A program made the position numbers and the translations under genes. The notes under the pieces were generated by a model that was not told the DNA's origin, searched no databases, and saw only the letters and a program-made list of their open reading frames with translations. This document shows positions 33,777-48,991 of a stretch of DNA of 64,000 bases, piece after piece. Location: assembly GCA_943846675.1 (NCBI GenBank), contig OX044357.1, positions 1,408,500 through 1,472,499 of the forward strand, written 5' to 3'. Source of the DNA: an uncultured Bacteroidia bacterium. Lineage in GTDB: Bacteria > Bacteroidota > Bacteroidia > NS11-12g > UBA9320. Position 1 is the first letter of the stretch, and the number at the start of each line of letters is the position of its first letter.

Positions 33777-34000
33777 ACACTCTTTTGTGCGCTAAGGCCT
33801 GAACCACATGGGCCAAATGGTGATTGCAGTGCCAAGCGTATAAGCCTATAAAGTGATTTATGGTTAAAGTTGCCTCATGTTCTGGATGAACCAATAGCTT
33901 TTGTAGTTCGTCTGCTGACAAGTGATTTAAAAGGTATGACCACTTTTCATGTAAGCCATCTCTAGTGGTGAGTATGTTTTTTTTATATACATAATGTTTA
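33777..34000 (-). pseudogene. DinB/YfiT-superfamily-like C-terminal fragment lacking an in-frame ATG; a frameshift at an A8 tract restores a Met start
   Basis: The minus-strand frame ...NILTTRDGLHEKWSYLLNHLSADELQKLLVHPEHEATLTINHFIGLYAWHCNHHLAHVVQAL... has a His-rich HxxxHH tail. A +1 A in the aaaaaaaa run at about 33977-33984 would join it to ATG TAT ATA. Confidence 0.25.
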
Positions 34001-34104
34001 ATTCATGGGAATTTACAAAGGCCTACATGTACTTATGTTTATTCCCGCTATAAATGTAGGAAATCCACTTGGGTATCAGTGAAAAAATCAAAAAATCTAA
34101 ACAG

Positions 34105-34343
34105 GATTATTCCTCAAACCTTCGCAAGCTTCGGTTTTCTGTGTTTGTAAGATTTTCTGATTAGAACAATGTCGTTCTAGTAAGTGCTGAGATTTGTTTT
34201 TAATTTGAATAAATGAGAATTTCCGCCAACCGCCAACCGCCAACCGCCAACCTCAATGGTTAACGACATTTTATCCTAAATCAAAAATCATCAGTCAGAA
34301 ATCACCACAAGATTATTCCTCAAACCTTCGCAAGCTCCGGTTT
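34105..34343. repeat. Two ~33-bp direct repeats (gattattcctcaaaccttcgcaagctYcggttt) about 206 bp apart, each preceded by aatcaaaaa(a)tc, flanking a CCGCCAA x4 microsatellite
   Basis: Copies at 34105-34137 and 34311-34343, read directly from the sequence. Confidence 0.8.
34223..34250. repeat. Heptanucleotide tandem repeat (CCGCCAA)4
   Basis: ccgccaaccgccaaccgccaaccgccaa followed by the degenerate cctcaat. Confidence 0.9.
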
Positions 34344-34456
34344 ACGTCAAGATCCTGATAGGCTCCAAATTCCGAAAGCAAAGTTCATCCGCCTTTGGCG
34401 GCTTACTTTTTTGTTCCCTTTCGAAAACTCAAGCGAGCTTGGTTTTCTCTGGAAAC

Positions 34457-34497
34457 AAAAAAGTCCACCAACCGATCGGTTGGTGGACTTTGCTTTC
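34457..34497. terminator. Strong GC-rich perfect palindrome flanked by A and T runs (bidirectional terminator-like)
   Basis: aaaaaa-gtccaccaaccgatcggttggtggac-tttgcttt, a 26-bp palindrome at 34463-34488. Confidence 0.6.
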
Positions 34498-34563
34498 TTA
34501 GTGACCTTGGCAGGACAGAGTTCAAACTTTTTTGAGGATTTTAAGTTATTTAATAATTATGTA

Positions 34564-34941
34564 GGTTCTGTCGCACCTATTAGACAAGAATTTAAAAGTA
34601 CAATTATTTTTTAATTCTAAGCGGCCAATGACATGAACGATTTAAACATAGTTTTATCTTGACCAATCAACTGATTTTTCTTAATCATTCTGACAATTTC
34701 AATTCCTGATAAGGTTCTTCTAGCAGATTCAAATTCTTTAAATCCCAAACCTTGCTGAATTCGCCATTTGATAAAACGGTGATCTTGTTCGGTTCTGTCG
34801 CATCTGACTATTTTATTCCTTTTCTTTATCAAAAATGGAATCAGATAAATAATTAAAGTGCTGATTTTCAATTGAATTTATTTTATGACATTTGAATTTT
34901 ATCAGTTTAAATCGGTTAAATTTGGTAGATGCGACAGAACC
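34564..34941. mobile_element. Internally deleted IS6-family insertion-sequence remnant (MITE-like, ~378 bp) with terminal inverted repeats
   Basis: Left end GGTTCTGTCGCAC (34564-34576) and right end GTGCGACAGAACC-like (34930-34941) are inverted copies and resemble the IS6-family IR consensus GGTTCTGTTGCAAAGT. They enclose only a truncated transposase C-terminus. Confidence 0.5.
34617..34871 (-). pseudogene. Truncated IS6-family transposase (C-terminal ~50 aa only)
   Basis: ...DRTEQDHRFIKWRIQQGLGFKEFESARRTLSGIEIVRMIKKNQL matches the conserved IS6/IS26-type transposase C-terminal block (NxIEQDHRxIKxRxxxMxGFKSFxSAxxTLxGIExxxMIRKGQ). Confidence 0.5.
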
Positions 34942-35006
34942 CAAGCGTTGGCTTGTGTGAATTGCAAATGTGCTTGCGGCTACCTTTTTTAAGTTAATCA
35001 ATTATT

Positions 35007-36236
35007 TCACTTTTTTACTATTCTTGATAAGTATACCAATGGTTTTACAATAAGTAAATAGCTAAACTTCTTTAAAACGAAACTTTTATCAATAACCTTT
35101 GCTGCCTTTTCGCCATAATGGTAATACCATTTAACGAAACTTTCTCCCCAGTTTTTTGTTAAAATCCATTCATCTCGGAAATAACGTAATTCCATCACTT
35201 GTGGGTCGTCATAGCTGCCCATTGCTGCGGTTGCTATAAAACAAAAAGACTTATTACCGCATTCATGGCACACTCCTCTTTTCGCCTTTTTTGCTTTAAC
35301 GGTCATTGGGAGGCCGCATTTATCACATTTAACTGGCCGGTGGATACGGAGAAAAAATCGTTTAAAATATGAATTAGTACTAATGTTATCCCAATTTAAA
35401 GCTTTTAGGTTTATGAGGGTGTTTACTTTCAAAGAGATTATTATAAAATTTTTTTCTAGTAATGCAGGGTTTAATTTGAAAAAATCAAAAACTTTAGAAG
35501 AAATATTACTAACAGATTCCGAATCCGTTGTCAAGGTTAAACCACCATATGTAAATGATATTATTTGTTTATACACCTGTTCATTTGTAATTTTAATTTC
35601 AGCATCATTAAGAATAATGGATTTTTCAACAGAAGTTTGAGGAACTTCAAAAAAACTTTCTATTTTATTTAAAGGGTTACCTGATAAATCAATCTTTATT
35701 AGATAGTTAAAAGTATCATTTACATTTATCACAGAGACTTCGTTATTTGAAAGATTAATCTCCATAACATTAGGGAATAAAGCTAAATCTGATAAATCAT
35801 TAATTTTATTATTGCTAACATCTAAGAACCTTACCATTTCTAGTTCTGTATCACTAAACCAATCCGCTAGTTCAGAAATACTGATAAGTCCTTTATTTGT
35901 AACTTTTAATAAACCTGCACCTCCTGAGTAATCCGATTCAATATCATCTCTAAAAAATTTAGATGGTCTATTTTTAAAATGAACTATCCATCCATCATCA
36001 ACTCTAACTTTGTTATGTAGCTCAGAAAAATTAGGAACAGTTGATATTTTCTTTTCTTTTGGAGGTACTATGTGAGGTTTTGACTTTATTCTGCTTACAT
36101 GTTCTGTTTGAATTGACTTTCTTTTTATTGATGGAGTGCTTATCAAGTTAGAACAAAATTCACATTTCACATTAGATTGACCATCTTCATAAACGTTAGC
36201 AGCGCCACAACTGGTGCATGAAATTGACTTACTCAT
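35007..36236 (-). CDS. Zinc-ribbon plus leucine-rich-repeat protein with a second CxxC...CxxC pair and a conserved C-terminal module (paralog B)
   Basis: N-terminal CTSCGAANVY...CEFCSNL zinc ribbon. LRR units (LDVSNNKINDLSDLALFPNVMEINLSNNEVSVINVN...IDLSGNPLNKIE). CDKCG...CHECG, then FCFIATAAMGSYDDPQVMELRYFRDEWIL...LVYLSRIVKK. Confidence 0.6.
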   Translation of the reverse strand: MSKSISCTSCGAANVYEDGQSNVKCEFCSNLISTPSIKRKSIQTEHVSRIKSKPHIVPPKEKKISTVPNFSELHNKVRVDDGWIVHFKNRPSKFFRDDIESDYSGGAGLLKVTNKGLISISELADWFSDTELEMVRFLDVSNNKINDLSDLALFPNVMEINLSNNEVSVINVNDTFNYLIKIDLSGNPLNKIESFFEVPQTSVEKSIILNDAEIKITNEQVYKQIISFTYGGLTLTTDSESVSNISSKVFDFFKLNPALLEKNFIIISLKVNTLINLKALNWDNISTNSYFKRFFLRIHRPVKCDKCGLPMTVKAKKAKRGVCHECGNKSFCFIATAAMGSYDDPQVMELRYFRDEWILTKNWGESFVKWYYHYGEKAAKVIDKSFVLKKFSYLLIVKPLVYLSRIVKK

Positions 36237-36449
36237 TTCAATTTTTAAATTTGGTTATTTTTTTTAAATCTGTTATTTCCTTCAATAAGGTATCGCCTTC
36301 TTCTAAGTGTTTAAATAGCAATACTTTCAAGTTCCTTTAACATACTTCAAAGTGCTGTAAAAAACCCTTCTATCTCATAGTTTTTATTAGCTCTTTTTTT
36401 AATGACTTCAAGTGATTCTTCAATAAATTTTCTTATTTCTTCCATAATT

Positions 36450-37697
36450 TTACTTTTTTACTATTCTTGATAAGTATACTAATGGTTTCACAATAAGTAA
36501 ATAGCTAAACTTCTTTAAGATGTAACTTTTTTCAATGAACTTAGCAGCAATTGCTCCATAATGGTAATACCATTTAACAAAACTTTCACCCCAACTTTTT
36601 TGTAAAATCCATTCATCACGAAAATGACGTAACTCCATGACCTGAGGATGGTCATAACTGCCCATGGTGGCAGTTGCAATAAAGCAAAAAGAAGTTTCTT
36701 TATCTTTAAATGAGGTGCTATATTTTTTCAAATATGCTTCCTTAAGTTGGGAGAAATTGCCCGTCCTTATCTTTATTTCGTGATTACTCCCTTTTGAGTC
36801 AATAATATTCATTTTAAAAAGGATCTTATTTTCAAAATCCTTGGCCTTTAGGTAATTCCCGCTTTTCATTCGAATAAGAGGACCGTAATTAATTTTAGAC
36901 AACAAATCTGGTGAACCATCTGGGTATTTGTTTTTAAGTTTACGTATTGTGTCAGATAAATCAACAGGGTTGTCTGTAAAGTCTAAATTAACGCTGATAC
37001 CATCAATAATTAACACCTCTAATGCAACAAAATCAATCGTTTGTATTTTATTCTTTGACAGATCTATTTGCAGTATATTCTGTATTTTCCAATAATTAGT
37101 ATCAATTATTGTGTTTATATTGAAGGTAGTAATTAAGTTCTCTGATAAGTCTAATTTTTTTAATTCATTCGATTTTATGTTAAAATTAGTAGAGGTAATT
37201 TCATTATTTTTGAGAATTAATCTCTCAAGATTAATTAAATGAGAAATATCATAAGAGTCACTAAGTTTATTGTTCGAAAGATCTAGAAATCTGATACTTT
37301 GAAGTTCAGTATCGGTATACCAATCGAATAAGTCTTCAAATGCTTGTAAGTTCTTCCTCGTTAAAAGAAGTTCACCTCCCCCATTAGAATAATCAAATAC
37401 AATTTTATCTTGAACAAACTTAGAAGGTTTGTTTTTGAAATGAGCAATCCAACCATTGTCAACCCTAACAAGATTATGAGGTTCACCAAAATTGGGAGGG
37501 TTTGATGATTTTTTCTGCCTAGGCTTTGTAATTTCGGGTTTTGTTTTTAGGCGACTTTCTCCTCCATTTTTTATAGCTTTAGTTTCATTGATGGGAATAT
37601 TTATTACACTACCACAAAAATCACATTTAACTGATGATTCCCCCGATTCATAGATATTTGCCCCACCACAACTTTGACAGTTAATTGCTCTACTCAT
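36450..37697 (-). CDS. Zinc-ribbon plus leucine-rich-repeat protein sharing the N-terminal ribbon and the C-terminal module with 35007..36236 (paralog A)
   Basis: CQSCGGANIY...CDFCGSV, LRRs (LDLSNNKLSDSYDISHLINLERLILKNNEITS...LDLSENLIT...IDLSKNKIQTID). The C-terminal FCFIATATMGSYDHPQVMELRHFRDEWIL...LVYLSRIVKK is near-identical to the paralog. Confidence 0.6.
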   Translation of the reverse strand: MSRAINCQSCGGANIYESGESSVKCDFCGSVINIPINETKAIKNGGESRLKTKPEITKPRQKKSSNPPNFGEPHNLVRVDNGWIAHFKNKPSKFVQDKIVFDYSNGGGELLLTRKNLQAFEDLFDWYTDTELQSIRFLDLSNNKLSDSYDISHLINLERLILKNNEITSTNFNIKSNELKKLDLSENLITTFNINTIIDTNYWKIQNILQIDLSKNKIQTIDFVALEVLIIDGISVNLDFTDNPVDLSDTIRKLKNKYPDGSPDLLSKINYGPLIRMKSGNYLKAKDFENKILFKMNIIDSKGSNHEIKIRTGNFSQLKEAYLKKYSTSFKDKETSFCFIATATMGSYDHPQVMELRHFRDEWILQKSWGESFVKWYYHYGAIAAKFIEKSYILKKFSYLLIVKPLVYLSRIVKK

Positions 37698-38148
37698 TTT
37701 TATCGTTTTTAAATTGGATAAACATTTTTTTTGCTAATTTTTCAAAACTTACCTTTTCACCTTCGATCAGGATATATGTGTTTTGGTTAAAGGGTTTTAA
37801 TTTTTCTAACTCATTATTTACTTCTTCTACCTTGCCTAGCAATAGAAAACATTGAAAAATACCGTAATGACATTTTGCTGCGGTTTTTCCAAATTCATTT
37901 CCGCTGTCTAATGCAGAAATTGTTGCATCAGGATAATTAGTAATTACTTGATTGAATGTTTCAATTGCTTGCTCGAACTGTTTTATTTTAAAGTAGCAAA
38001 GACCAACATTATATAATGCATCATCAGCTAAATCACTTTGAGGGTATTCATCAATTAACATTTTGAATTTGTTGATTGAATCAAGATAAAATTCATCTTT
38101 AGCAAGATTAAGTCCTTCTGTAAAATACTGTATTTCGTTATCGTGCAT
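37690..38148 (-). CDS. Tetratricopeptide-repeat (TPR) protein
   Basis: 152 aa with about three TPR-like units (ADDALYNVGLCYFKIKQFEQAIETFNQVITNYPD...). The stop overlaps the start of the LRR gene. Confidence 0.55.
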   Translation of the reverse strand: MHDNEIQYFTEGLNLAKDEFYLDSINKFKMLIDEYPQSDLADDALYNVGLCYFKIKQFEQAIETFNQVITNYPDATISALDSGNEFGKTAAKCHYGIFQCFLLLGKVEEVNNELEKLKPFNQNTYILIEGEKVSFEKLAKKMFIQFKNDKNE

Positions 38149-38500
38149 TTCGTTTGTTTTTTTGTTCTTGTTTATAATCGGATGCCGAAAAAGTTTCGGC
38201 TTTAGAAACTTTCAAAATATATGTTGCTCCACCTAAAAGTAAAGCAAGTGCGACACCAAATCCTGTATCGTACCAAACTTGTTTGTAACAGATATAGCCA
38301 CCTACAATTAAAATAGAACTGAATAGAAATACAGCTACTTTACCGTTAATAGATGAAATAAAAGCGATAGGCAGAAATAAAATAATAAAAGCTATAATGA
38401 TTTGAGCAAACGAACGGTCAGTTTCAAAAGCATAAATTAATATCCCACAACTTAAACCTGCTAATAGTATTCCGATAATTGTACTTGCTATTTTACTCAT
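38138..38500 (-). CDS. Small integral membrane protein (3-4 TM helices)
   Basis: 120 aa, almost entirely hydrophobic helices, with a basic C-terminal tail. Coupled to its neighbours by overlapping start and stop codons. Confidence 0.5.
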   Translation of the reverse strand: MSKIASTIIGILLAGLSCGILIYAFETDRSFAQIIIAFIILFLPIAFISSINGKVAVFLFSSILIVGGYICYKQVWYDTGFGVALALLLGGATYILKVSKAETFSASDYKQEQKNKRNAR

Positions 38501-39483
38501 TATAAGTTGTTTAAAATTCGTTTTTTAGTTTCGTTAAACTCTTCTTGGTCAATGGCTCCCATATCCAATAACTCTTTAAGTTTTTTCAATTTTGAAAAAG
38601 AGTCTTCTTCTGTATCTGCTGATTGATTATTCTGTTGCATAGCTTGATTCATCATTTGTGGAATCATAAACCCCATACCCATACCTGCTCCGAGCCCCAT
38701 TCCTTCACCAGCATTTCCTGTAGGATTTTCTGCCGCCTTTTCCATTGATTGTCCCATTTGAAACTTCATAAAATCGTCCATATTTCCGACAGCAGACATT
38801 CCTGAGCGAGTGTCAATCATTTTTTGAACTTCTGGTGGAACTGAAACAGAATTAATTAAGAAATCATGTAATTCTAAACCCAGCCCTTCAAAATCAAGAT
38901 TTAAGCTGTTTTTTATTAAAATTGATAGGTTATCAAAATGTTGCGGTAAGTCGAATACTGTTTTCACATGTTGTCCGAGAGTAACGTTCAGTTTTTGAAG
39001 AATGATTGATTTTAAGTAATCCGAAATGTCGGAATCTCGAAAAACACCTTGTGTACCAACAACTTTATTTAGAAATAACGAAGGTTCTTTTATTGTAATG
39101 GAAAATGCTCCATAACTCCTCAACCTTATCATTTTCAATTCAGAATCTCTAAATAAGATTGGCTCTTTTGTTCCCCACTTTAAGTTTCGAAACAACTTCA
39201 TGTTAAGGAAATAAACCTCAGATTTGAATGGAGAGTCTTTTCCGTAACCTAATGAAGTTATTAATTTGGTTAAAATTGGAATGTTTTGAGTTTTTAAAAC
39301 ATGTCTACCAGCACTAAAAACATCTAATGATTTTCCATCTCTGAAAAAGACAGCCTTTTGACTTTCTCGAACAATGAGTTGAGCACCCATTTTAAATTCA
39401 CCACTACTATCTTCTGGTACTCTTTGCACCATAGAGTCTCCTGTGTTATCAAGGTATTCTATTATTTCCATTAGTTTTCCCAT
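38500..39483 (-). CDS. SPFH/band-7-like protein of the YdjI (COG4260, 'virion core protein'-annotated) type with a C-terminal SHOCT domain
   Basis: Architecture and blocks (GTKEPILF..., ...HDFLINSVSVPPEVQKMIDTRSGMSAVG) parallel Bacillus YdjI. A Gly/Met-rich linker leads to FSKLKKLKELLDMGAIDQEEFNETKKRIL, the SHOCT motif. Confidence 0.65.
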   Translation of the reverse strand: MGKLMEIIEYLDNTGDSMVQRVPEDSSGEFKMGAQLIVRESQKAVFFRDGKSLDVFSAGRHVLKTQNIPILTKLITSLGYGKDSPFKSEVYFLNMKLFRNLKWGTKEPILFRDSELKMIRLRSYGAFSITIKEPSLFLNKVVGTQGVFRDSDISDYLKSIILQKLNVTLGQHVKTVFDLPQHFDNLSILIKNSLNLDFEGLGLELHDFLINSVSVPPEVQKMIDTRSGMSAVGNMDDFMKFQMGQSMEKAAENPTGNAGEGMGLGAGMGMGFMIPQMMNQAMQQNNQSADTEEDSFSKLKKLKELLDMGAIDQEEFNETKKRILNNL

Positions 39484-39484
39484 C

Positions 39485-39934
39485 TTACAAATCTTTTAAG
39501 TACTGGTTTCTTTTATTAATTGAGTTTTCAAGTGATTGAATATGTTGTTTCGTATTCTCTAAATTCGTAGCTGCTAGTCCTTCTTGCAAATTTTCTGTAG
39601 CATCAAAAATGTCTAAATCCATTTGATAGATATTTTCAAGTTCCTCATTTTTAATTACTGAGTCTGAAAAAAAAGCAGAAGCCCCATAAGGTGAATACTT
39701 TATTAAATCTTTCAGATTATTGATTTTCTTCCTCACTTTTTCAATTTCAGCTAACTCAGATAATTCAGAAACTTCAATTAATGAATTGATAATTTTTTCT
39801 GTTTCAGAAAGCTTATCTGCAATTTGTTCTCTTAATTGTCGGTCGCATTCTCTTCTGCTGTCTCTTTCTTGATAACCTTTATAACCAGGTATCAATGTTC
39901 CGATTTTGTCAAATATGTTTGTTTTTCTATTCAT
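39485..39934 (-). CDS. Hypothetical coiled-coil protein, first gene of the operon
   Basis: 149 aa, highly charged with helical heptad character. The weak N-terminal IFDKIGTLI resembles PspA/Vipp1 starts, but I cannot establish that. Confidence 0.4.
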   Translation of the reverse strand: MNRKTNIFDKIGTLIPGYKGYQERDSRRECDRQLREQIADKLSETEKIINSLIEVSELSELAEIEKVRKKINNLKDLIKYSPYGASAFFSDSVIKNEELENIYQMDLDIFDATENLQEGLAATNLENTKQHIQSLENSINKRNQYLKDL

Positions 39935-40092
39935 ATTTATCAGTTATGTAAGCGTTGTCAAAAAAGCAATGTGTGCGCAGCACTCTTTGCTTTGTGCGGT
40001 GTTACCACATAAGTGCCTGCACCTCTTTGATAATAAATAATAAAATGTTTTGCAGCCATAGAGTTATTTTGTAAGTCTTCAAACACAAGCTC

Positions 40093-40115
40093 AAAATGCA
40101 GCCAATCTGCATTTT
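40093..40115. promoter_or_regulatory. Perfect 9-bp inverted repeat with a 5-bp spacer (aaaatgcag-ccaat-ctgcatttt) in the promoter region of the island operon; candidate operator
   Basis: Read directly. It lies between the XRE regulator gene end (40171) and the operon start (39934). Confidence 0.45.
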
Positions 40116-40170
40116 CGATTTAACAGGTATGTTTGTGCAGAATCAATAATTATTTTCATTAAAATTTAAT

Positions 40171-40362
40171 CTATCTACTTGAAACAATTAAATCTTTTAT
40201 ATCTACATCTATAATCTCAGCGATTTCATTCAAAATCTCCAATCGGGGTTGTTGTCTGTTTTGTACATAGCCGTTCACCATATTATAACTTTTATCTAAC
40301 TCTTCAGCTAGCCAAGTTTGCTTGATACCCTTTTCTTCTAGTACTTCTTTTATTCTGTTCAT
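40171..40362 (-). CDS. XRE-family (Cro/CI-type) helix-turn-helix transcriptional regulator
   Basis: 63 aa with the HTH_3 pattern IKQTWLAEELDKSYNMVNGYVQNRQQPRLEILNEIAEII. Confidence 0.8.
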   Translation of the reverse strand: MNRIKEVLEEKGIKQTWLAEELDKSYNMVNGYVQNRQQPRLEILNEIAEIIDVDIKDLIVSSR

Positions 40363-40453
40363 GATAATTTGAAATTCAATATCTAAAATAGATATTATAT
40401 ATTGAAAAACAAGATGTAAAAGACACTTATTTCAATACCTGTTAAATCGAAAA

Positions 40454-40510
40454 ACGTCGTTTGAACACAAATTACGACGTACAACGACGTTTAACGGCAT
40501 TCGACGTCGT
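40454..40510. promoter_or_regulatory. Cluster of at least four palindromic heptamers ACG(A/T)CGT upstream of the XRE gene; candidate operator or iteron array
   Basis: acgtcgt (40454), acgacgt (40474), acgacgt (40484), cgacgtcgt (40502). Confidence 0.45.
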
Positions 40511-40557
40511 ATTAAGGTTGTTTTTTTTTGAAAATGGAAAAGAGAGGTTACATGAAA

Positions 40558-40592
40558 AATAAAAAAAGGTCATGCAGTTTTCCTTGACCTTT
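40558..40592 (-). terminator. Rho-independent terminator (minus-strand sense)
   Basis: The minus strand reads aaaggtca-aggaaaactgca-tgaccttt followed by ttttttt; an 8-bp stem plus T-run downstream of the 40640-40962 small genes. Confidence 0.6.
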
Positions 40593-40758
40593 AGACCTGA
40601 ATAATGAAACTAAAAGAGTACAGATTATTTACATTCCCATATCCTTAAAATCTCCTATCAGTATTTTACTTAATCTTAACAAGGCAGTAACCCCTGCAAC
40701 AATAATTACTGCTCCAATCATTGTCTTAACTATTTTCTGAATCTCTTCATTAGAAGAT

Positions 40759-40962
40759 TTAGTCTTTTCCGTTTTCATTTTCTTTAGGTTTAATTTTAAT
40801 ACTATTCTGTTGTGCTCTTCTCGTAACGGCTGCGGAAACTGCTACTCCTATGAGTAGAACTCCGCCGACGATTATGAATTTTAACCAAGGATTTGATCCT
40901 GGTTGTGAATTTGTCCCCGAATTAAATCCGGGTAAGTTTTCTATTGGTGTTGGTACATTCAT
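40759..40962 (-). CDS. Small hypothetical membrane protein
   Basis: 67 aa with one TM (KFIIVGGVLLIGVAVSAAV). A 49-aa TM ORF in another frame (about 40640-40787) overlaps it. Which is real is unclear. Confidence 0.35.
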   Translation of the reverse strand: MNVPTPIENLPGFNSGTNSQPGSNPWLKFIIVGGVLLIGVAVSAAVTRRAQQNSIKIKPKENENGKD

Positions 40963-41402
40963 CGTTTTTTAATTTTTATTTTAAGAACTTCATTTCTCGC
41001 GTATATGCGATACATATATCTATAAGTAATATGATACTCTTTTTCATTATGGTTAATTCTTCCGATGTGATAACCAGATTTGAAACCATCAGCTTTAAGG
41101 ACATCATAAAACCTTTCAATTTCATCCTGTCTCTTCTCGCTATTAAAATGTCTTTCTAGAACGTTGTCATTCTTCAGTAGTATTTTTTCATCTCTTATTC
41201 TGTGTCTATTCTTGGACTTTCTCTTTCCGTGGTTGTAAGCAAAGTCAGCATGCTGCTTGTTTAAATAAATATTATCACTTCTACTAGGATAGAATGAATA
41301 GCCGCAACCACATTCACATTCTCTAGCGGAAATCGGTCTTGGTAGAGGTGTGCTTCCCTTAGGATCTAGTATTTCTTCTATTTCTATATTGTTTGGCTCC
41401 AT
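40959..41402 (-). CDS. Hypothetical protein
   Basis: 147-aa ORF with a CECGCG motif and no confident family. Confidence 0.35.
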   Translation of the reverse strand: MEPNNIEIEEILDPKGSTPLPRPISARECECGCGYSFYPSRSDNIYLNKQHADFAYNHGKRKSKNRHRIRDEKILLKNDNVLERHFNSEKRQDEIERFYDVLKADGFKSGYHIGRINHNEKEYHITYRYMYRIYARNEVLKIKIKKR

Positions 41403-41451
41403 TGTAATGAAAATATTACTATATTTGACAAATATAATAATTATTACGCAT

Positions 41452-42402
41452 ATGTCAGAACGAATAAATATTTTAAATCAGGAAGAGTTGGAGTACCTCA
41501 ACAGTTCTGAATATAAATTCGAATATCCAGGTCTTAGAAATGCTATGGACGTTCCCAGATTTACAATAAGTGATTTAGGGGTTACGGCAAGAGATGCAAC
41601 GTATTGGTCAAAGAAAGAAATTCTGCCTGAAGTCAAAGGCGGAAATACAACAAGGAGAAAATATACTTTAAAGCAAGCTCTATGGATAAAGCTAATTCAG
41701 CAACTAAGGTCTTTTGATATTTCACTTAACCAAATCAAAAAAATAAAGGATCATTTATTAACCTCAGATGTTAATATAAAGGAGCTGATGGAAAATGAGC
41801 AAGTGAATATTATACTCGAAAGATTGGTTGATAAAGATGGTCAGCTTGAAGAATATAAAAAATTAATGAAAGACCCTTCTTTTCTTAAAGAATTAGAAGG
41901 CCAAAATCTTGATGTTTTTGAGATGATGGTATTATATACAATTATATTCAGAAGGGATGTAAGCTACATAGTGACAGTCGATGGTTATGGCCTCCCATAT
42001 GTCTTTGATAAACATGAGATCATGAAAAAGAACTTTCCGGAGTTCGAGTTATTAATGAAAAGCCCTCATATCGTCCTTTCATTATCTCAAGCATATAGTC
42101 AGTTAATCCAGGATTGGAGTGAGAAAAAATGGTTTAATGAAGTGTCTATTGTTTCAAAGGATGAGAAAAAAATACTTGGTCTGATGCGGGATAAAACGAC
42201 CAAAGAATTGAGAATAATGAAGAATAAGGATGAGATAGACAGAGTAATCCTTATTAAGGACAAATCCATTAACGCCATAGAAGAGTTTGCTAATCACATC
42301 GTAAGAAACGGTTATCAGACAATTACGATTAGCACACGTCAAGGCAAGCCGGTCCATTTCAAAAATGAAGTATCTATTAAACTAAAGAACATACCGGAAT
42401 AA
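41452..42402 (+). CDS. Hypothetical protein with an N-terminal MerR/excisionase-type HTH
   Basis: Internal ATG at 41452 (MSERIN...). RFTISDLGVTARDATYWSKKEIL resembles the HTH_17/excisionase-like DNA-binding helix. It sits adjacent to the recombinase. Confidence 0.4.
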   Translation: MSERINILNQEELEYLNSSEYKFEYPGLRNAMDVPRFTISDLGVTARDATYWSKKEILPEVKGGNTTRRKYTLKQALWIKLIQQLRSFDISLNQIKKIKDHLLTSDVNIKELMENEQVNIILERLVDKDGQLEEYKKLMKDPSFLKELEGQNLDVFEMMVLYTIIFRRDVSYIVTVDGYGLPYVFDKHEIMKKNFPEFELLMKSPHIVLSLSQAYSQLIQDWSEKKWFNEVSIVSKDEKKILGLMRDKTTKELRIMKNKDEIDRVILIKDKSINAIEEFANHIVRNGYQTITISTRQGKPVHFKNEVSIKLKNIPE

Positions 42403-42639
42403 CCGGACAATTGATCTCCGCTTTCAGCACCGAAGAACGGACGTAAAGCACATGGGGAATAAATGTGAAAACAACTAACCAAATTAAAAGTGAACTTACA
42501 AATGATAAAAGAACACTAGAAAAAAGAAGAGAGGTAAAAGAGAAATTAAAAGTGCTTGGTGAAACAGAAGAGAACACCGAACGAATACTCACGTCAATTG
42601 AGTGTTATTGTCAACTGGTGTTGCAATCAATAAAAAAGA

Positions 42640-44238
42640 GTGAATATGGATAAACTAAACGAATTCAAAAAATTTAGCCCTGAGCGGAAAACTCTTGGAG
42701 AAAATAATAATGCAATTATCTATACTCGCGTGTCAACAAAAGAACAAGCGGACACAAACACTAGTCTTGGAACTCAAAAAAGGTATTGCGAAAATTATGC
42801 TAAAGCCAATGGGTTATATGTAGTAGCCTACTTTGGAGGAACCCACGAGTCAGCAAAAAGTGATGATAGAAAGGAGTTTAAAAGAATGCTTAAGTATGTC
42901 AAGCAAAGTGGCTCTATAGGTTACATTATTGTTTATTCATACGATCGGTTTTCAAGAACAGGATCTAGTGCATCTCAAATTACTCATGAATTACTCGATC
43001 AAGGAATTCAAGTTAAAGCTGTCACTCAAGAGGTTGATGCAACTTCGGCTTCAGGTAAATTCCAACAAAATCTATTCTATATGTTCAGTCAATTTGACAA
43101 CGAACTGAGAAGAGATAAGACAATCACTGCAATGAGTGACTTATTACGAAAAGGCTATTGGCTTTGGAATCCTCCGGTAGGCTATATTAACCAGAAAAAA
43201 TATCATAAAGCCGTGGAATGGGATATTGTGATTGATGAGAACGGAAAACAATTGAAGAAAGCTTTTAAGTGGAGATTGAAAAATACCTACTCGAATGTAG
43301 AAATAGTGCGAAGGCTGAATGCAGCAGGAATGATGATAAATGAAAAGCGCTTGCATGAGATTTTTAAGAATCCTTTTTATTGCGGAATCCTTGTCTGTAA
43401 AATGTTACCCGGAGAGATAATTGAAGGAAAGCACAAGCCTATTGTATCTAAAGAGGATTTTTTAATAATCAACTCTGAAAGAACACCCCAACTGAAAGAA
43501 TATAAAACGGATAACGATCAACTTCCTTTAAAGCAATTCGTTTATTGTGAGGCTTGCAAAACACCTTTGACGGGTTTTCTTGTCAAGCAAAAAGGGTTGT
43601 ATTATTATAAATGCAGAACCAAAGGATGCAGCTGCAACAAGTCTGCGAAACATCTACACGAGCAGTTTGAAAAGAAATTAAGTAGTTATCAAGTCGATTC
43701 TAAATATGTGGATATAATCAAAGAGGTAATGATTTACACGTATGATTCTGTAACTAAAGAAATAAGAGAGAATGAAGCAAATGTAAAGAAGCAATTGAGC
43801 CTGCTAAAGTCTAAAATTGATACCATAGAAGAACGCTTTGCAATTGGAGAAATTGACAATGAAATCTACAAGAAATTTAAAACTAAATATGAAGCGGAAG
43901 AAAAGAAGTTAGAGTCAAATTTATTCAGTTCTACAGTTTCGAGTTCGAACCTTCAAATAGCAATAGATAAAGCATTAAAAATGTCTTCCAACCTCAGTGA
44001 ATTATGGACTTCTGGAGATTTATCTCAAAAGAAGAAAATACAAAGTTTAGTGTTTCCATCCGGAATAGGTTACGACAAGTTAAAAGGCAAAGTTCAAACC
44101 AAAAGAGTTAACTCTATTTTCTCATCTATTCCACTATTGACAAAGGATTTGGATAAAATAAAAAGCGGAGAACCAGTTGATTTCAACCAATTCTCCGCAA
44201 GAGTGACCCTGCCAGGATTCAAACCTGGAACCTTCTGA
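42640..44238 (+). CDS. Large serine recombinase (resolvase/invertase-type N-terminal domain plus recombinase domain plus zinc ribbon)
   Basis: The catalytic region AIIYTRVSTKEQ...SYDRFSRT carries the resolvase Ser/Arg motifs. A C-terminal Cys cluster (CEACKTPLTG...CRTKGCSC) and coiled coil follow. The 3' end overlaps tRNA-Arg. Confidence 0.85.
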   Translation: MNMDKLNEFKKFSPERKTLGENNNAIIYTRVSTKEQADTNTSLGTQKRYCENYAKANGLYVVAYFGGTHESAKSDDRKEFKRMLKYVKQSGSIGYIIVYSYDRFSRTGSSASQITHELLDQGIQVKAVTQEVDATSASGKFQQNLFYMFSQFDNELRRDKTITAMSDLLRKGYWLWNPPVGYINQKKYHKAVEWDIVIDENGKQLKKAFKWRLKNTYSNVEIVRRLNAAGMMINEKRLHEIFKNPFYCGILVCKMLPGEIIEGKHKPIVSKEDFLIINSERTPQLKEYKTDNDQLPLKQFVYCEACKTPLTGFLVKQKGLYYYKCRTKGCSCNKSAKHLHEQFEKKLSSYQVDSKYVDIIKEVMIYTYDSVTKEIRENEANVKKQLSLLKSKIDTIEERFAIGEIDNEIYKKFKTKYEAEEKKLESNLFSSTVSSSNLQIAIDKALKMSSNLSELWTSGDLSQKKKIQSLVFPSGIGYDKLKGKVQTKRVNSIFSSIPLLTKDLDKIKSGEPVDFNQFSARVTLPGFKPGTF

Positions 44239-44277
44239 TCCGTAGTCAGATACTCTATTCAGTTGAGCTACAGGGCC
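44204..44277 (-). tRNA. tRNA-Arg (anticodon ACG)
   Basis: Hand-folded. Acceptor GGCCCTG/CAGGGTC with one G-U pair, D-arm GCTC/GAGT, anticodon stem TCTGA/TCAGA with loop CTACGGA (U33, ACG), T-arm CCAGG-TTTGAAT-CCTGG, discriminator A. No CCA is encoded. Confidence 0.7.
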
Positions 44278-44433
44278 GATTAAGGGGTGCAAAGATAAAA
44301 CGGTTTATATAATTATCTAACGTTTTTGTCCATTTGATTTAATTTTATGCCTTATCGTAAAATTCATATAACAATTCGATTTAGATTGATTATAATGTGA
44401 TGCCTTCTATATCTTTGTTAGCAATCCGAAAAA

Positions 44434-46821
44434 ATGAGAAAACACATTTTGTTTTGGTTATTAATAACCAGCTATAACATAATTCAGGCACAAACGGAAC
44501 ATCACTTTTCAGGGTTTGTGACTTCCGAAACAACAGATAATTCCTTGTCCAATTTACGCGTTTGGATCCCTGCAGATTCCATCGAGTCGGCAACAAATGC
44601 TTTTGGCTTTTTTAATCTGATAACATCCAAAGATTCGTTTACGGCGTATATGGAAAAACCGGGCTACGAAAGAAGAGAAATGCAGGTCGTGTTTCAAGAA
44701 AATGGTGCAACATTGGTTGTGCCGATCTTTAGAAACCCTGGTTTGTCAACCAAACTACTCCGTTTTGATGCAGATGAAAATGGGAATTTTAATCTAAACC
44801 TAGTCCCAATTTTTAATACCGAATTCACACATTATACACCGAGTTCTTCCACAAATCATGAAATAACAGATGTAGAGTCAGACAAGATTGTAATGACAAA
44901 AGCAGAGTTAGATGCTCTTCCATTCATATTTTCTGAACCAGATGTTTCTAAAGCCTTACAGGTTAACGCAGGTGTAGAGTTTGCTTCTGATGGCTATAGT
45001 GATATGACCGTTCGTGGCGGTGGACTTGGACAAAATCAGATTCTTTTAAATGGAGCACCAGTATATAGCCTCGGTCACTTCGAAGGATATATATCGAATT
45101 TTAGCAGCGCAACTGCCGAAGAGGTTGTGTTGTACAAAGCGGCTTTCCCAGCGCGTTTTGGTGGACGTTTATCCAGTGTGATGGACGTTAAATCAACAGC
45201 CGGCAATGCACAAGAGGCTGAAGCGGATATTGCCATAAGTCCTGTTTTGGGTAATTTTAAAGTGGGGTTACCGCTGGGTAATGGCAATTCTTTGGGTATT
45301 ACGTTCAGACGGTCGTACATCGATCTTTTATTAGATGTGGCTGATCAAGAATTGTTTTATAGAGATTTTAGCGGAAAGCTAGATCTTAACTTAAATCCTA
45401 AGAATAAATTAACCCTTAGTTATTACAGCTTAAAAGATAAAATTAAGGTTTCTGGGTCAGAATTTAACGACACCAACACAAGTGTTAAAGAGCTGGATTT
45501 TACGTTTGATATAACGGTGAAAAATCAAACAACATCGGCTGATTGGCTGCATATATTTGATAAAAAAACAACGGCTACTTTCACGGCCTATTATACCAAC
45601 TATTCTAACGGCATAACCTTAAGCGAAACGGACTATACCGCACCAATTGGCTCAAACGCAATTAGTGATTATACCGTGCGTTTTTCCGCTGGAGAAGTTG
45701 GCGCTCAAGCAGATTTTGAGCATAGAAAGAACAAAAAAGTGGTGCTTCGTTACGGGCTTCAAAATAGACTTCATTTAAACAACTCGGGTTCGCTTGTAGA
45801 CAAACGGTATACCATTGACGGAGATTTAATCACAGACGATCAATATGGAGATACGGTTATCCAAACAGGTATAGAAACATCATTATACATAGAAGACGAG
45901 TACACGTATAACGACAAACTGGCTTTTAACGCAGGAATGCGCGCCACGGTGTATTCATACCATAATTTTACACGGGTTTATCCAGAACCGAGGTTCTCAG
46001 GTCGATACTTGGTTTCACCAACATCGTCAGTAAAATTCTCTTACTCAAGAATGCATCAGTTTATGCATTTGTACAATACCGACGGAACTGCTACCGATAA
46101 TTTTGTCGTCTACCTTCCTGCTAGTGAGAAATTGAAGCCGCAAACCAGTGACATTATATCATTGGGCTACCATACAAAACCCGGTAAACGAACCAGATTC
46201 TCGAGTGAAGCCTATTATAAAATTTTGTCTAATCAACCCATTTTTTATGCGGCAGACCTATTTGATAGAGACGATATGGAAGCCAATTCACTTGTTGGTG
46301 ATGGAGCAGTTATTGGAATTGAAAATAGCTTCAAGTATGTTGGAGACAATACAATTTTTTGGGCAAGTGCGACATTCTCAAATGCCACCAGAAAATACGC
46401 TGAGCTCAATAGGGGAGAGTCATTTTCTTTTGACTACGACAGACGTGTTATAGGTAAAATCGGGTACATCGTTAACCTTGAAAATTTTGTATTCTCAGTA
46501 ATAGGCGTCGGAGCGACTGGAAATCCATTTACGCTGCCAACGTCAAAGTATCGTGATTTAGACGGTGATGTGGTATTGGCCTACGACGAGATTAACAATT
46601 ATAGGTCTACGTATCATGCCCGACTCGATGCGAAGTTTGAATGGCACTTTTCCGACGAAGTCCAAAGCTTAGAATTAAGCGTATATAACTTGTTGGGTAC
46701 CCGTAATGTGCAATCCATCTTTAGTGAGCGAGACGACACCACAACCAATTATAAGTACACCGCATATACAAGGTCGAGTTATTCTTTTCTTCCATTTCTA
46801 ACCTACCGTGTCAATATCTAA
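44434..46821 (+). CDS. TonB-dependent receptor (CarbopepD_reg domain plus plug plus barrel)
   Basis: Signal peptide, N-terminal carboxypeptidase-regulatory-like fold, plug motif DALPFIFSEPDVSKALQVNAGVEF...DMTVRGG, and a long beta-barrel. Confidence 0.75.
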   Translation: MRKHILFWLLITSYNIIQAQTEHHFSGFVTSETTDNSLSNLRVWIPADSIESATNAFGFFNLITSKDSFTAYMEKPGYERREMQVVFQENGATLVVPIFRNPGLSTKLLRFDADENGNFNLNLVPIFNTEFTHYTPSSSTNHEITDVESDKIVMTKAELDALPFIFSEPDVSKALQVNAGVEFASDGYSDMTVRGGGLGQNQILLNGAPVYSLGHFEGYISNFSSATAEEVVLYKAAFPARFGGRLSSVMDVKSTAGNAQEAEADIAISPVLGNFKVGLPLGNGNSLGITFRRSYIDLLLDVADQELFYRDFSGKLDLNLNPKNKLTLSYYSLKDKIKVSGSEFNDTNTSVKELDFTFDITVKNQTTSADWLHIFDKKTTATFTAYYTNYSNGITLSETDYTAPIGSNAISDYTVRFSAGEVGAQADFEHRKNKKVVLRYGLQNRLHLNNSGSLVDKRYTIDGDLITDDQYGDTVIQTGIETSLYIEDEYTYNDKLAFNAGMRATVYSYHNFTRVYPEPRFSGRYLVSPTSSVKFSYSRMHQFMHLYNTDGTATDNFVVYLPASEKLKPQTSDIISLGYHTKPGKRTRFSSEAYYKILSNQPIFYAADLFDRDDMEANSLVGDGAVIGIENSFKYVGDNTIFWASATFSNATRKYAELNRGESFSFDYDRRVIGKIGYIVNLENFVFSVIGVGATGNPFTLPTSKYRDLDGDVVLAYDEINNYRSTYHARLDAKFEWHFSDEVQSLELSVYNLLGTRNVQSIFSERDDTTTNYKYTAYTRSSYSFLPFLTYRVNI

Positions 46822-46823
46822 TC

Positions 46824-47717
46824 ATGAAACAAACAATCAAAATACTTACGTTTATCGTTCTGATTGGCATATTGCAATCATGTAGCAACGATCAACCCAT
46901 ACCACAAGGTCAATTACCAAGTTTCCAACCTAAACTGGTTGTAAACAGTTCGTTGAATAACCTGGAACCCATTCATATTAAAATAAGCGACAATGCCGGT
47001 GCTTACACCAACGATTTGCCTTTAGACTATAGCGACGTGACCATATTACTCAAAGCCGACGGAAGCACTGTTTCTACCACATATGATGCGGCTAGCAAAA
47101 GTTTCTTGTCAAACCAATCAGCGATTTCTGGAAAATCCTATACTATTGAGGTTCAGGATAATGCAGGAGAAAGGCCAACGGTTTTCGCTCGGAGCTTTAT
47201 TCCACTTGAAGTAGGAAATAAATCAATTGGTTATATCGAGAATGGCGGTACTGACATGGATGGGCGACCTTCCGATCTAATTTCTATTGAGTGGACGGAC
47301 CAAGCAGGAAGTAACTATTACATGCTTCATTTTTATTACTATAGCGAAACAGCAGACCTGTTTATTCCTTTTGAATTTCAGATCAATGATGCCTCTCTAA
47401 AAGCACCAGAAACGATGAAGTTAAATGATGGAGGATTCCTGTTTAATGATGTTTTATTTAACGGACAAACCAAGAAGATCGAGGCTGTGCCACCAGGAGG
47501 ATTGGTAGCTGCAAACTCCGATGTGCTGTACTTGATCGAATTGCGTTCAGTGACGCGAGACTTCTACAATTATTACAAGACGTTACAGCAATACCGCGAT
47601 AGGGATGATTTGCAACAAGCTGGCCCGTTTGGTAGTGCGGTTATTGTGCATAGCAATATCATCAACGGATTAGGAGCCTTTATCGCGTCCAATGTTGAAA
47701 GTGATACCATACGGTAA
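46824..47717 (+). CDS. DUF4249-like lipoprotein (typical partner of Bacteroidota TonB-dependent receptors)
   Basis: Lipobox LQSCSND. Its position immediately after a TonB-dependent receptor gives family-level recognition only. Confidence 0.5.
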   Translation: MKQTIKILTFIVLIGILQSCSNDQPIPQGQLPSFQPKLVVNSSLNNLEPIHIKISDNAGAYTNDLPLDYSDVTILLKADGSTVSTTYDAASKSFLSNQSAISGKSYTIEVQDNAGERPTVFARSFIPLEVGNKSIGYIENGGTDMDGRPSDLISIEWTDQAGSNYYMLHFYYYSETADLFIPFEFQINDASLKAPETMKLNDGGFLFNDVLFNGQTKKIEAVPPGGLVAANSDVLYLIELRSVTRDFYNYYKTLQQYRDRDDLQQAGPFGSAVIVHSNIINGLGAFIASNVESDTIR

Positions 47718-47791
47718 ATGGATTACTTCTAGCACGGTAATGGATATGGTATTGTGCATTAACCTTGTTTCATTTACTGAAAATACGTGCT

Positions 47792-48883
47792 TTACTTATT
47801 CGGGTCCGACCATTTCGGATTATTGAGTAACGAGTCGTCGTTTAAGGTTATTAGAAAAGCAATCAAGTCTCGTTTATCTTGTTCAGTCCATGCTCGCGCA
47901 ACGGGTTTCCTATCCTTTGTGTGTTTTAACAAGTCTAAACTCAATGTTGGAGAAACATGAAATCCCGTATCATAGAAGTCGACAACTTCACGAAGCGTTT
48001 GAAACCGACCATCATGCATATATGGAGCCGTATGTCGTAAATTAAGTAATGACGGCGTTTTGAACTTGCCCGCGTCATTAGGGTCACCAGTTTGACCTCC
48101 TAAACCAGTGTTTTGGCTTGGGTTTTCAATGAGACCATTGTTAAAGAAATCAAAGTTGGTCGTAAAAGTGGTTAATGTGTGGCAGTGAAAACAATCACCT
48201 TTGGTTTCGTCTTGAAAAACCTGTAAGCCACGCTGTTGGACAGGGTTTCTTAAGTCCTTACCTAAGTTTGGCAATGACCTATAATTATAAGAAACGATGC
48301 TGCGCATAAACTGCGCCATGGCCTTAGCCATATTCTCAACCGTTATCGCCGAATCACAAAACGCTTGATAGAACATACTTGGATATTGATCCGAATCTTG
48401 CAGTTTCTTAACTGCTCTGAACACACTTTCGTGCATTTCTACTTCGGATTGAATCGGAAACAAAACAACTTCTTCCAAAGAATTGGCTTTGCCGTCCCAA
48501 AAGTATTTGTCTGCCCATGCAGCATTAGCAATGGGCATGGCTCCACGAGAACCCGCAAATCCATCAATTCCAATACTAAACTTGTTTACATCGGCAAAAG
48601 CTTCTGATTGTAAATGGCACCCAGCACAAGCCAATGTATTGTCACCCGACAACATTTTTTCGTAGAAAAGATGCTTGCCAAGTTCTATCCCTTCAACCGT
48701 CATTGGGTTGTCTTCTGGAATTGGCATTGGTGGGGTTTGAGCAGGAAGAACAACTTCAAATGGCGTTCCACATGATATGAATGGGCTGTTTACGGCTGGA
48801 TCTTTAACACATGATGTTACTAGGAATAACGTTGAAATGAATAGAAATCCGAATAATTTTTGCCGTTTGTCAAGCATCTTCAT
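47792..48883 (-). CDS. Di-haem cytochrome c peroxidase (CCP/MauG family)
   Basis: Two CxxCH haem motifs (CAGCH, CFHCH). Signal and lipobox start MKMLDKRQKLFGFLFISTLFLVTSC, chosen at 48883. Confidence 0.85.
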   Translation of the reverse strand: MKMLDKRQKLFGFLFISTLFLVTSCVKDPAVNSPFISCGTPFEVVLPAQTPPMPIPEDNPMTVEGIELGKHLFYEKMLSGDNTLACAGCHLQSEAFADVNKFSIGIDGFAGSRGAMPIANAAWADKYFWDGKANSLEEVVLFPIQSEVEMHESVFRAVKKLQDSDQYPSMFYQAFCDSAITVENMAKAMAQFMRSIVSYNYRSLPNLGKDLRNPVQQRGLQVFQDETKGDCFHCHTLTTFTTNFDFFNNGLIENPSQNTGLGGQTGDPNDAGKFKTPSLLNLRHTAPYMHDGRFQTLREVVDFYDTGFHVSPTLSLDLLKHTKDRKPVARAWTEQDKRDLIAFLITLNDDSLLNNPKWSDPNK

Positions 48884-48991
48884 GCAGTTGTAAAATGAGT
48901 TCAATTTAATTACGGTAAAGATACAATATTGACCCTGATTCGTTGCAGCTACTTTGCAATAATTACTTAACATTGCGCCTCTCAAAAGGGA

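Follow-up and report, generated by a model that had tools for sequence, protein, structure and literature searches.

A putative serine-integrase island at the 3' end of a tRNA-Arg gene in an uncultured Bacteroidia bacterium, with a predicted replacement tRNA terminator inside the integrase gene

Within 64,000 nucleotides from an uncultured Bacteroidia bacterium (GenBank assembly GCA_943846675.1, contig OX044357.1, positions 1,408,500 to 1,472,499; this whole stretch is called the window below and is numbered from its first letter), an AT-rich island ends in the gene of a large serine recombinase (LSR) that lies across the 3' end of a tRNA-Arg(ACG) gene. ARAGORN calls this tRNA, the only one of the window, at 44203-44277 on the minus strand, and Rfam RF00005 matches it at 44204-44277 (-) with 61.6 bits; the gene is intact, with a 3' end identical to that of the same gene in related genomes lacking the island. 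On the opposite strand, the recombinase open reading frame (ORF; 42640..44238 (+), 532 amino acids from a GTG at 42640, with an ATG at 42646 as an alternative start) runs into the tRNA gene, so that its final 35-36 nt read as the reverse-complemented 3' part of the tRNA. GC content is 0.322 across the island (34507-44201) against 0.398 and 0.397 in the flanks, and no 9.7-kb segment outside the island falls below 0.390 (sd 0.004). A first-pass annotation made from the letters alone had proposed an AT-rich island at this tRNA, bounded by a serine recombinase overlapping the tRNA at 44204-44277 by ~35 nt. The tRNA, the overlap, and the compositional shift were all confirmed here, and nothing that the annotation had named as speaking against it (a flat composition, no tRNA at this position, or relatives carrying the same genes with no empty site and a recombinase ending before the tRNA) was found. 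Taken together, the results below indicate that positions 34507-44208 are very probably a 9.7-kb integrative element, non-conjugative and not phage-like, that was put in place by the LSR.

The C-terminal tails of recombinase homologues, and then alignment, gave the clue to the island boundaries. Both ends carry the same 7-bp core, AGTGACC, at 34500..34506 (+) for attL and at 44202..44208 (+) for attR, the latter comprising 2 nt of tRNA trailer, the discriminator A73, and tRNA positions 72-69; the island measures 9702 bp. To the left of the attL core, on its B-arm side, a terminator scan identified the host's original intrinsic terminator for tRNA-Arg (34460..34491 (-), a 14-bp stem and then TTTTGTTTCC). 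To the right of this core lies an element-derived P' arm (34507..34545 (+), TTGGCAGGACAGAGTTCAAACTTTTTTGAGGATTTT), which resembles the tRNA acceptor and T arm plus a 5-bp insertion and includes TTCAAAC at 34521-34527; the B' half-site at the other end is the acceptor 3' strand and T arm of tRNA-Arg itself, with TTCAAAC at 44218-44224. In a four-way alignment, attB reads ..CTTTCTT (host terminator), AGTGACC, CTGCCAGGATTCAAACC.. (tRNA); attL reads ..CTTTCTT (host), AGTGACC, TTGGCAGGACAGAGTTCAAACTTTTTTGAGG; attR reads ..TTCTCCGCAAG, AGTGACC, tRNA; and attP, taken from the attP-type contig L002, reads ..TTCTCCGCTAA, AGTGACC, TCGACAAGACAGAGTTCAAACTTTTTGGAGG. Hence attL corresponds to B plus P' and attR to P plus B', as checked against both empty attB sites and attP-type junctions.

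Empty sites were sought among species-representative genomes with the flanking TonB-dependent receptor as query, which returned four relatives (L003-L006). In three of them (L003, L005, and L006), the counterpart of window positions 34347-34515 adjoins the counterpart of 44202 onward with a 16-nt overlap, i.e., ~34515 is joined directly to 44202 with no island in between. These genomes carry the predicted empty site exactly; the first-pass annotation had called for this comparison. The left side of L004 is too short, and the tRNA followed by its own terminator is visible there, again with no island. Across all four relatives, the host terminator hairpin lies directly downstream of the tRNA and shows compensatory changes in the alignment; in the window, island insertion appears to have left it stranded 9.7 kb from tRNA-Arg. 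The converse junction was recovered as well. In L002, the recombinase gene (75% DNA identity and 78% protein identity to that of the window) runs straight into a stretch 91% identical to window positions 34500-34542, and a recombinase 3' end fused to a P' arm is found in the attP-type junctions of L002, L016, L019, L074, and L098. Read in frame, the left edge of the island (34497-34545) gives LVT-LAGQSSNFFEDF, matching the recombinase tails of attP-type copies, so that in an excised form the P' arm would encode a recombinase tail ..VTLAGQSSNFFEDF... A pattern search for attL in other loci recovered L019 alone, with an element size of 9563 bp.

These junctions revise the left edge of the earlier interpretation, which had started the island at 34000 and read 33.8-34.95 kb as a recombination scar with a tRNA-3'-like fragment in it. 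The island starts instead at 34500/34507; positions 34184-34506 are host DNA conserved beside the tRNA in the empty-site genomes, repeat unit included, with a counterpart of the heptamer array in L005; and the tRNA-like fragment, rather than a displaced piece of the host tRNA, is a P' arm that belongs to the element and that attP-type contigs show fused to the recombinase gene. Its report that the tRNA 3' end has no exact second copy was borne out, since a 27-mer of this end has a single match even at up to 3 mismatches, and Rfam finds no second tRNA-like match. The left att boundary, which it could not place, now falls at 34500-34506, where the 7-bp core and the gapped tRNA-like arm together occupy 34500-34527. 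The absence of a long direct repeat is expected, because a serine integrase requires only a short core.

Both its domain set (catalytic domain, recombinase domain, and zinc ribbon with coiled coil) and its att architecture mark the recombinase as a bona fide LSR. Pfam matches include Resolvase PF00239 (E 4e-26, residues 25-172) and Recombinase PF07508 (E 3e-12); phrog_95, an integrase family of PHROGs, matches residues 15-467 (E 2e-67); and the catalytic domain has structural matches in the Protein Data Bank (PDB) to TP901-1 integrase and TnpX. In an alignment with 25 homologues, Y28-T-R-V-S32..Q36 and V522 are invariant, as are C303, C306, and C325, with a fourth cysteine, C330, conserved in the consensus, and a heptad-rich insertion of ~90 amino acids occupies residues ~350-440. 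Unidirectional attP x attB activity, as in other LSRs, is putative for this protein.

The conserved part of the recombinase stops at V522-T523, whose codons GTG ACC belong to the att core, and the last nine codons (LPGFKPGTF) are the antisense of the tRNA. Homologues share ..NQFSARV-T followed by tails translated from reverse-complemented tRNA 3' halves, of which GFKP and GFEP correspond to the T-loop, while TLRAEI, TSTAVM, and TASLEGRCSIQLS derive from different tRNAs. A minority, from attP-type copies, have ..SSNF(L/F)EDF.. in place of a tRNA-derived tail. The integrase ORF thus seems to span the crossover, and we infer that integration rewrites the LSR C-terminus from ..VT-LAGQSSNFFEDF.. 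to ..VT-LPGFKPGTF. In some homologues (P0025, P0056, and L090, positions 7731-8040), the recombinase ORF continues antisense across an entire tRNA cluster (Arg-Pro-Ser), with tails of 60-80 residues.

The same arrangement recurs far beyond this genome. A metagenome scan with the 25-sequence alignment yielded at least 568 stretches encoding a relative, the best 80 loci of which were retained, and a scan of viral contigs (IMG/VR) added 8 further loci, all of them distant relatives (≤44% identity). A locus counted as assessable if it included the C-terminal region and extended at least 75 nt past it; in 55 of 68 such loci, spanning 32-98% identity, the conserved V codon is where the 3' end of a minus-strand tRNA lies. 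Targets are mostly tRNA-Arg (47 in total: ACG 19, TCT 13, TCG 11, CCG 3, CCT 1), followed by Met (3), Leu (2), Lys, Pro, and Ala (1 each); about 5 more loci have a tRNA-like sequence not called by ARAGORN, and the remainder are attP-type or tandem junctions. Every target called in relatives of at least 50% identity is a tRNA-Arg, and other tRNAs are used as well at 32-48% identity. Cultured carriers include Siansivirga zeaxanthinifaciens CC-SAMT-1 (CP007202.1), whose LSR at about 13.4-15.0 kb lies beside a tRNA-Arg(TCG), and Flavobacteriaceae bacterium XHP0103, with tRNA-Arg(ACG) as target. The island would accordingly belong to a large, apparently undescribed clade of Bacteroidota LSRs that target tRNA ends, whose integrase gene crosses the att site and carries a replacement tRNA terminator within it.

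Since tyrosine integrases are the textbook users of tRNA 3' ends, and serine integrases have been described as not known to target tRNAs (PMC7192596), the island could also be a classical tRNA island left by a tyrosine integrase since lost, with the serine recombinase a passenger (a resolvase or invertase) that overlaps the tRNA by accident, a scenario to which a tRNA-like fragment at the far end would seem to lend weight. We consider this very improbable. There is no room for a tyrosine integrase, as all island ORFs are accounted for and the uncovered gaps are too short, and no island protein matches Phage_integrase (tyrosine recombinase) in Pfam, PHROGs, or NCBIfam. The two ends share 7 bp only rather than a direct repeat of tRNA length (typically 15-60 bp), attP-type contigs have the tRNA-like arm, with its constant 5-bp insertion, fused to the recombinase gene, and the supposedly accidental overlap is that found in 55 of the 68 loci. 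Islands of the P4/Islander type do resemble this one in their insertion at a tRNA 3' end with a functional tRNA kept, an integrase beside the tRNA, and AT-rich cargo. Their enzyme, however, is of a different superfamily, and the tRNA piece at their far end is a displaced host fragment, whereas here it is element DNA. The 'classic' signature invoked by the first-pass annotation is thus right as to tRNA insertion, but belongs to tyrosine integrases with long repeats. At first sight a precedent, the 10K island of Riemerella, also at tRNA-Arg, was rejected because its integrase is a tyrosine integrase; its repeat is 53 bp long (PMC6764341), against a core of 7 bp here.

Pairs of related elements at different tRNAs narrowed the point of strand exchange in the serine-integrase island. 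The recombinases of L026 and L027 are 100% identical over 515 residues and have identical P arms, but sit at two different target genes, tRNA-Arg(TCG) (L026, 1800-1874) and tRNA-Arg(TCT) (L027, 11564-11638), suggesting that one enzyme uses at least two natural target tRNA genes. Those of L030 and L036 are 94% identical, likewise with identical P arms and different tRNA-Arg genes. In both pairs the sequences part immediately after GTGA, and attL and attR of the window differ from the first base past AGTGACC, which together argue that strand exchange probably falls within GTGA, that is, tRNA U71-C72-A73 and the first trailer base (positions 71-74). We favour GT, at the A73/C74 junction, as the likely crossover dinucleotide because it is the only one invariant in every attR across the family. 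Wherever exchange falls within GTGA, the tRNA would stay host-encoded, its 3' end being the same in occupied and empty sites.

The two arms that carry tRNA-like sequence differ by a fixed offset. TTCAAAC starts at core start +21 in P' and at +16 in B' (the tRNA), and the same spacing holds across the family, GTGAxx and a TTCRAAC-like motif being separated by 14 nt in 7 of 7 attP-type junctions (window, L001, L002, L016, L019, L074, and L098; the L074 variant, GTCTAAC, matches TTCRAAC at 5 of 7 positions) against 9 nt in every tRNA arm. For a crossover at GT or TG, the T-arm motif (GGA)TTCAAAC would occupy half-site positions ~11-19 in attB' and ~16-24 in attP', and the P arm carries TGGTTGAAA at half-site positions 16-24. 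In the Listeria A118-type integrase, the motif read by the zinc-ribbon domain (ZD) is 5 bp nearer the center in attB than in attP (Rutherford et al. 2013, PMC3783163), and the att sites described here follow this 5-bp rule of LSR attP/attB pairs. By this comparison, the zinc-ribbon domain of the LSR would read the T-loop/T-stem motif, which would explain the use of several tRNA genes by a single clade and even by a single enzyme.

Directly beyond the att core, on the element side, lies a second terminator-like structure. On the tRNA strand, it begins 4 nt past the tRNA 3' end (44155..44198 (-); a 15-bp stem at 44198-44165, then TTTTTATTTT at 44164-44155), is the strongest terminator-like site of the region in our scan, and folds at -23.9 kcal/mol (z = -4.5). 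The hairpin is wholly inside the recombinase codons K-I-K-S-G-E-P-V-D-F-N-Q-F-S-A, antisense to the ORF. An equivalent hairpin with T-run is present in 50 of 50 distinct loci, in the alignment of which 91.6% of stem cells are paired, against 33-57% when the partners are slid. Both sides have changed in 12 of the 15 stem pairs, and the covariation score of 0.535 (against 0.05-0.20) was reached by none of 500 shuffles. This covariation is visible at the protein level, where G-E goes with F-S and G-D with I-S. The tRNA-sense strand has 109 G.U pairs, the opposite strand 9, and the T-run occurs on the tRNA-sense strand only (mean 6.6/8), a bias that argues for selection of the structure as RNA on the tRNA transcript. 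The hairpin and T-run thus have every appearance of an element-supplied terminator for the tRNA, a replacement that is needed because integration separates the tRNA from its own, and that would prevent tRNA transcription from continuing, antisense, through the integrase gene. As the terminator DNA doubles as the P arm of attP, the last ~25 LSR codons would hold three codes at once.

The hairpin could instead act at the DNA level, as a palindrome to which the recombinase or its directionality factor binds, or could stabilise the 3' end of the integrase mRNA. Its position inside the P arm, 4-37 bp from the core, means that it must contact the recombinase, and its loop contains TTGAAAT at half-site positions ~19-25. 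Neither function in place of termination seems likely to us, as the 12-fold excess of G.U pairs and the exclusive T-run on the tRNA-sense strand point to the tRNA transcript, the stem sequence accumulates compensated changes freely from one family member to another, a freedom that protein binding would not allow, and a replacement is required once integration has removed the tRNA's own terminator. A terminator role and a recombinase-contact role are not mutually exclusive and can coexist.

Upstream of the recombinase, the island encodes a small conserved module. A MerR-type winged helix-turn-helix (HTH) protein of 316 amino acids (41452-42402 (+); Pfam MerR_1 E 5e-9, C-terminal alpha/beta domains unmatched) directly precedes the recombinase gene in 35 loci, distant ones included. 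Its family has only 113 members; its AF2 model has a pLDDT of 81.5, and the HTH alone was matched in a PDB fold search. Divergent from it are the genes of a 147-amino-acid protein (40959-41402 (-)) and a 67-amino-acid membrane protein (40759-40962 (-)), both with no family match, which tblastn located in 18 and 6 related loci, respectively, always just upstream of the MerR-like gene. The conserved module consists of the recombinase, the MerR-type protein, and the divergent 147-amino-acid gene. From its conserved synteny, the MerR-like protein is probably a clade-specific partner of the recombinase and the best candidate for a regulator or directionality factor.

The island also carries cargo, and related elements do not conserve the cargo genes of the window. 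Among the features listed by the first-pass annotation, the XRE gene, an HTH gene (of MerR type), the six-gene cargo block (on the minus strand), and an IS6 fragment are all present. The block comprises two paralogues (35007-36236, 409 amino acids, and 36450-37697, 415 amino acids, both (-)) with a zinc ribbon, leucine-rich repeats (Pfam), and a CFI-box C-terminus (NCBIfam NF041770 CFI_box_CTERM, E 6e-20 and 2e-20), whose region holds a 265-nt direct repeat; a TPR protein (37690-38148 (-), Pfam TPR); a small membrane protein (38138-38500 (-)); an SPFH-type protein with Pfam Band_7_1 (E 6e-62) and SHOCT domains (38500-39483 (-)); and a coiled-coil protein of 149 amino acids (39485-39934 (-)). 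PADLOC found no defence system among the island proteins beyond generic HTH matches of the XRE protein. This XRE/Cro-type repressor (63 amino acids, 40171-40362 (-); Pfam HTH_26/HTH_3) is flanked by a perfect 19-bp inverted repeat (40112-40130 / 40435-40453), past the right arm of which lies an array of ACGACGT/ACGTCGT half-sites (40454-40515). The repeats and array could be operators, or could delimit a small invertible or insertable cassette; L001 has only the right repeat arm. IS6-family debris fills 34565..34942, just inside the left end, with three copies of a terminal inverted repeat (GGTTCTGTCGCA at 34565 and 34790, inverted at 34931-34942) and the 84-amino-acid C-terminal ORF of a transposase (34617-34871 (-)); it is a 70% match to an intact IS6 (DDE_Tnp_IS240) copy in L001. 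This sister strain carries IS6, IS110, a TPR protein, and DUF4372 in place of the window's cargo, with the intact IS6 transposase and IS110 at L001 positions 3036-5684, and the genes of L002 include a caspase-like peptidase and a large protein with TPR repeats. Insertion sequence activity probably drives cargo turnover.

This gene content also bears on a phage origin, in which the island would be a prophage or phage satellite that has decayed and is now fixed and immobile. Such an origin might be suspected from the XRE repressor, from IS6 debris and a mosaic history suggestive of decay, and from IMG/VR viral contigs (21-50 kb) on which more distant recombinase relatives (32-44% identity) sit at tRNA-Met. 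It appears unlikely. No capsid, tail, terminase, or replication matches were found in the island, its PHROGs matches being confined to the integrase and regulators; the island retains an intact recombinase ORF, two intact att sites, and an intact terminator; and its close relatives vary little in size (~9.5-9.7 kb) and share the three- or four-gene module, with cargo that is unrelated. Pfam, PHROGs, and NCBIfam likewise gave no match to virion, conjugation (type IV secretion system, relaxase), mobilisation, or replication genes among the island proteins. The element could still be a satellite or a relaxase-less mobilisable element.

Our favoured interpretation, in which the LSR inserted a mobile element into the tRNA gene, can be set out as follows. 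From the sequence comparisons, the attB site consists of the tRNA 3' end, trailer, and terminator, and attP lies within the 3' end of the LSR gene. Exchange within GTGA leaves the tRNA intact and host-encoded, with the host terminator displaced to attL, and the element brings a new terminator hairpin and T-run, antisense in the last ~25 LSR codons. Once integrated, the LSR ORF would read on into the antisense of the tRNA. Excision would presumably proceed via a directionality factor, for which the conserved MerR-like neighbour is the best candidate, and the cargo, a putative SPFH/CFI-box membrane module, would be exchangeable and partly shaped by IS6 activity.

Several observations weigh against this interpretation or blur parts of it. 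At the level of the enzyme, Zn_ribbon_recom PF13408 scores 22.9 bits, just under its 25.3 cut-off, and no known directionality factor was identified among the island proteins, the MerR-like protein resembling only MerR HTH regulators in the PDB search. At the att sites, the crossover could be narrowed to no fewer than 4 nt, a scan of attP for dyad symmetry around a central dinucleotide was weak (best 12/26) and is not relied on, the B arm in the host flank has no recognisable ZD-type motif, and IS6 debris lies 58 bp from the attL core. As to mobility, transfer and replication genes were not found among the island proteins, attP-type contigs (L002, L016, L098-L101, and others) show no terminal overlap that would indicate circularity and thus provide no excised circle, and no empty site was found within the same species. 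L019 and L098 are tandem or stacked arrays. Finally, the window and L001 are 99.93% identical over 40585-54238 but unrelated or 74% identical left of 40585, and the left flank of L001 (FA_hydroxylase) is syntenic with the empty-site genome L005 while that of the window is not, a recombination mosaic across the island which suggests that homologous recombination also shaped the locus.

The arrays themselves preserve att remnants, namely, in L019 (1842-2026), a remaining recombinase 3' end that runs into the P' arm of the following element and, in L098 (3470-3620), a second P'-like arm ~100 nt past the first, which we read as evidence of repeated visits to the same tRNA. In the host flank of the window, a ~110-nt conserved unit downstream of tRNA-Arg (34299-34412) has its own plus-strand hairpin (34389-34401) and T-run. 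Part of a second copy is found at 34093-34137, and four CCGCCAA heptamers form an array at 34223-34250. The empty site of L005 has the same layout, with CCGCTAA repeats, and the unit and array are therefore a host feature; the unit is possibly a small RNA gene convergent with the tRNA. Of the items noted earlier at the left edge, the IS6 remnant belongs to the island and the DinB-like fragment does not: this C-terminal piece of a DinB-family (HxxHHxxQ-type) protein (~70 amino acids, 33777-33985 (-), 5'-truncated) falls within a 27.8-34.3 kb stretch that is non-syntenic with L003. Further left, a second low-GC patch (27500-29000, 0.34-0.36) at the start of an efflux/TolC gene block, itself outside the L003 synteny, may be another acquired segment.

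The enzyme and its sites share much with the LSRs of phages and integrative conjugative elements (ICEs; A118/LI, Bxb1, phiC31, TP901-1, SPbeta SprA, CcrAB, and XisF), including the same domain set, short att sites with a small common core, and a distal motif 5 bp further out in attP. Unlike these enzymes, which target protein-coding or intergenic sites, the clade described here targets tRNA 3' ends, with attP inside the integrase ORF, an embedded antisense terminator, one enzyme at several tRNA isoacceptor genes, and a known directionality factor absent. phiRSM uses the 3' end of a tRNA-Ser gene. Elements of this type have a small serine recombinase as integrase, according to the work cited as ref. 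22 in PMC7192596; the phiRSM Int is a resolvase-like 'S-Core' without recombinase and zinc-ribbon domains, whereas the protein here is a full 532-amino-acid LSR. The only prior mention of serine integrases at tRNA genes that we found consists of unverified computational cases, 14 of 297, predicted by TIGER as serine-integrase islands at t(m)RNA genes, which their authors described as not reported before and still requiring proof (Mageeney et al. 2020, PMC7192596). These islands are likewise predicted at tRNA genes, but that paper gives no anatomy, clade, or mechanism for them; Siansivirga, an isolate that carries a clade member, has no entry in its supplementary files that would indicate overlap with the clade. 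The term tRNA does not occur in Durrant et al. 2022, papers on Elizabethkingia ICEs make no link between serine integrases and tRNAs, and no description of this clade, its att anatomy, or the embedded terminator was found in the literature searched.

A parallel for the rewritten tail is found in Mx8 IntP/IntX, in which, as summarised in PMC4383910 (citing Tojo 1996), the integrase ORF extends across attP and integration rewrites the C-terminus. Integrases of the Mx8/SSV type are tyrosine recombinases, whereas here the enzyme is a serine recombinase and only a short tail after the conserved V-T is altered, and it is thus not a member of that group. Still, Mx8 IntP/IntX is analogous to the tail-rewriting state switch proposed here for a serine integrase. 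In its fullest form, this proposal is tentative and probably goes too far in at least some part. It would have a large undescribed Bacteroidota clade of serine integrases specialised on tRNA 3' ends, with the near-universal T-loop/T-stem sequence as ZD motif, a crossover precisely at the discriminator/CCA junction, several tRNAs per enzyme, and a triple-coded 3' end (protein, attP arm, and antisense terminator), in which C-terminal rewriting (..SSNFFEDF.. when free, a tRNA-antisense tail when integrated) and convergent tRNA transcription could together switch the integrase between states and thereby tune its activity or stability.

Large-DNA integration relies mainly on serine integrases as tools, and these enzymes have been assumed to avoid tRNA genes. 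The present clade is abundant, from the hundreds of metagenome stretches encoding a relative to isolates such as S. zeaxanthinifaciens, has an att anatomy that is defined in full here, and would provide integrases whose natural landing pad is among the most conserved sequences in biology. Recognition of the T-arm as a ZD motif under the canonical 5-bp shift offers a possible structural rationale, which bears on why tRNA targeting had seemed limited to tyrosine integrases and makes that question testable. Likewise, the antisense terminator within the integrase ORF would represent a clear case of overlapping codes, in which an element repairs the very transcription unit that it splits.

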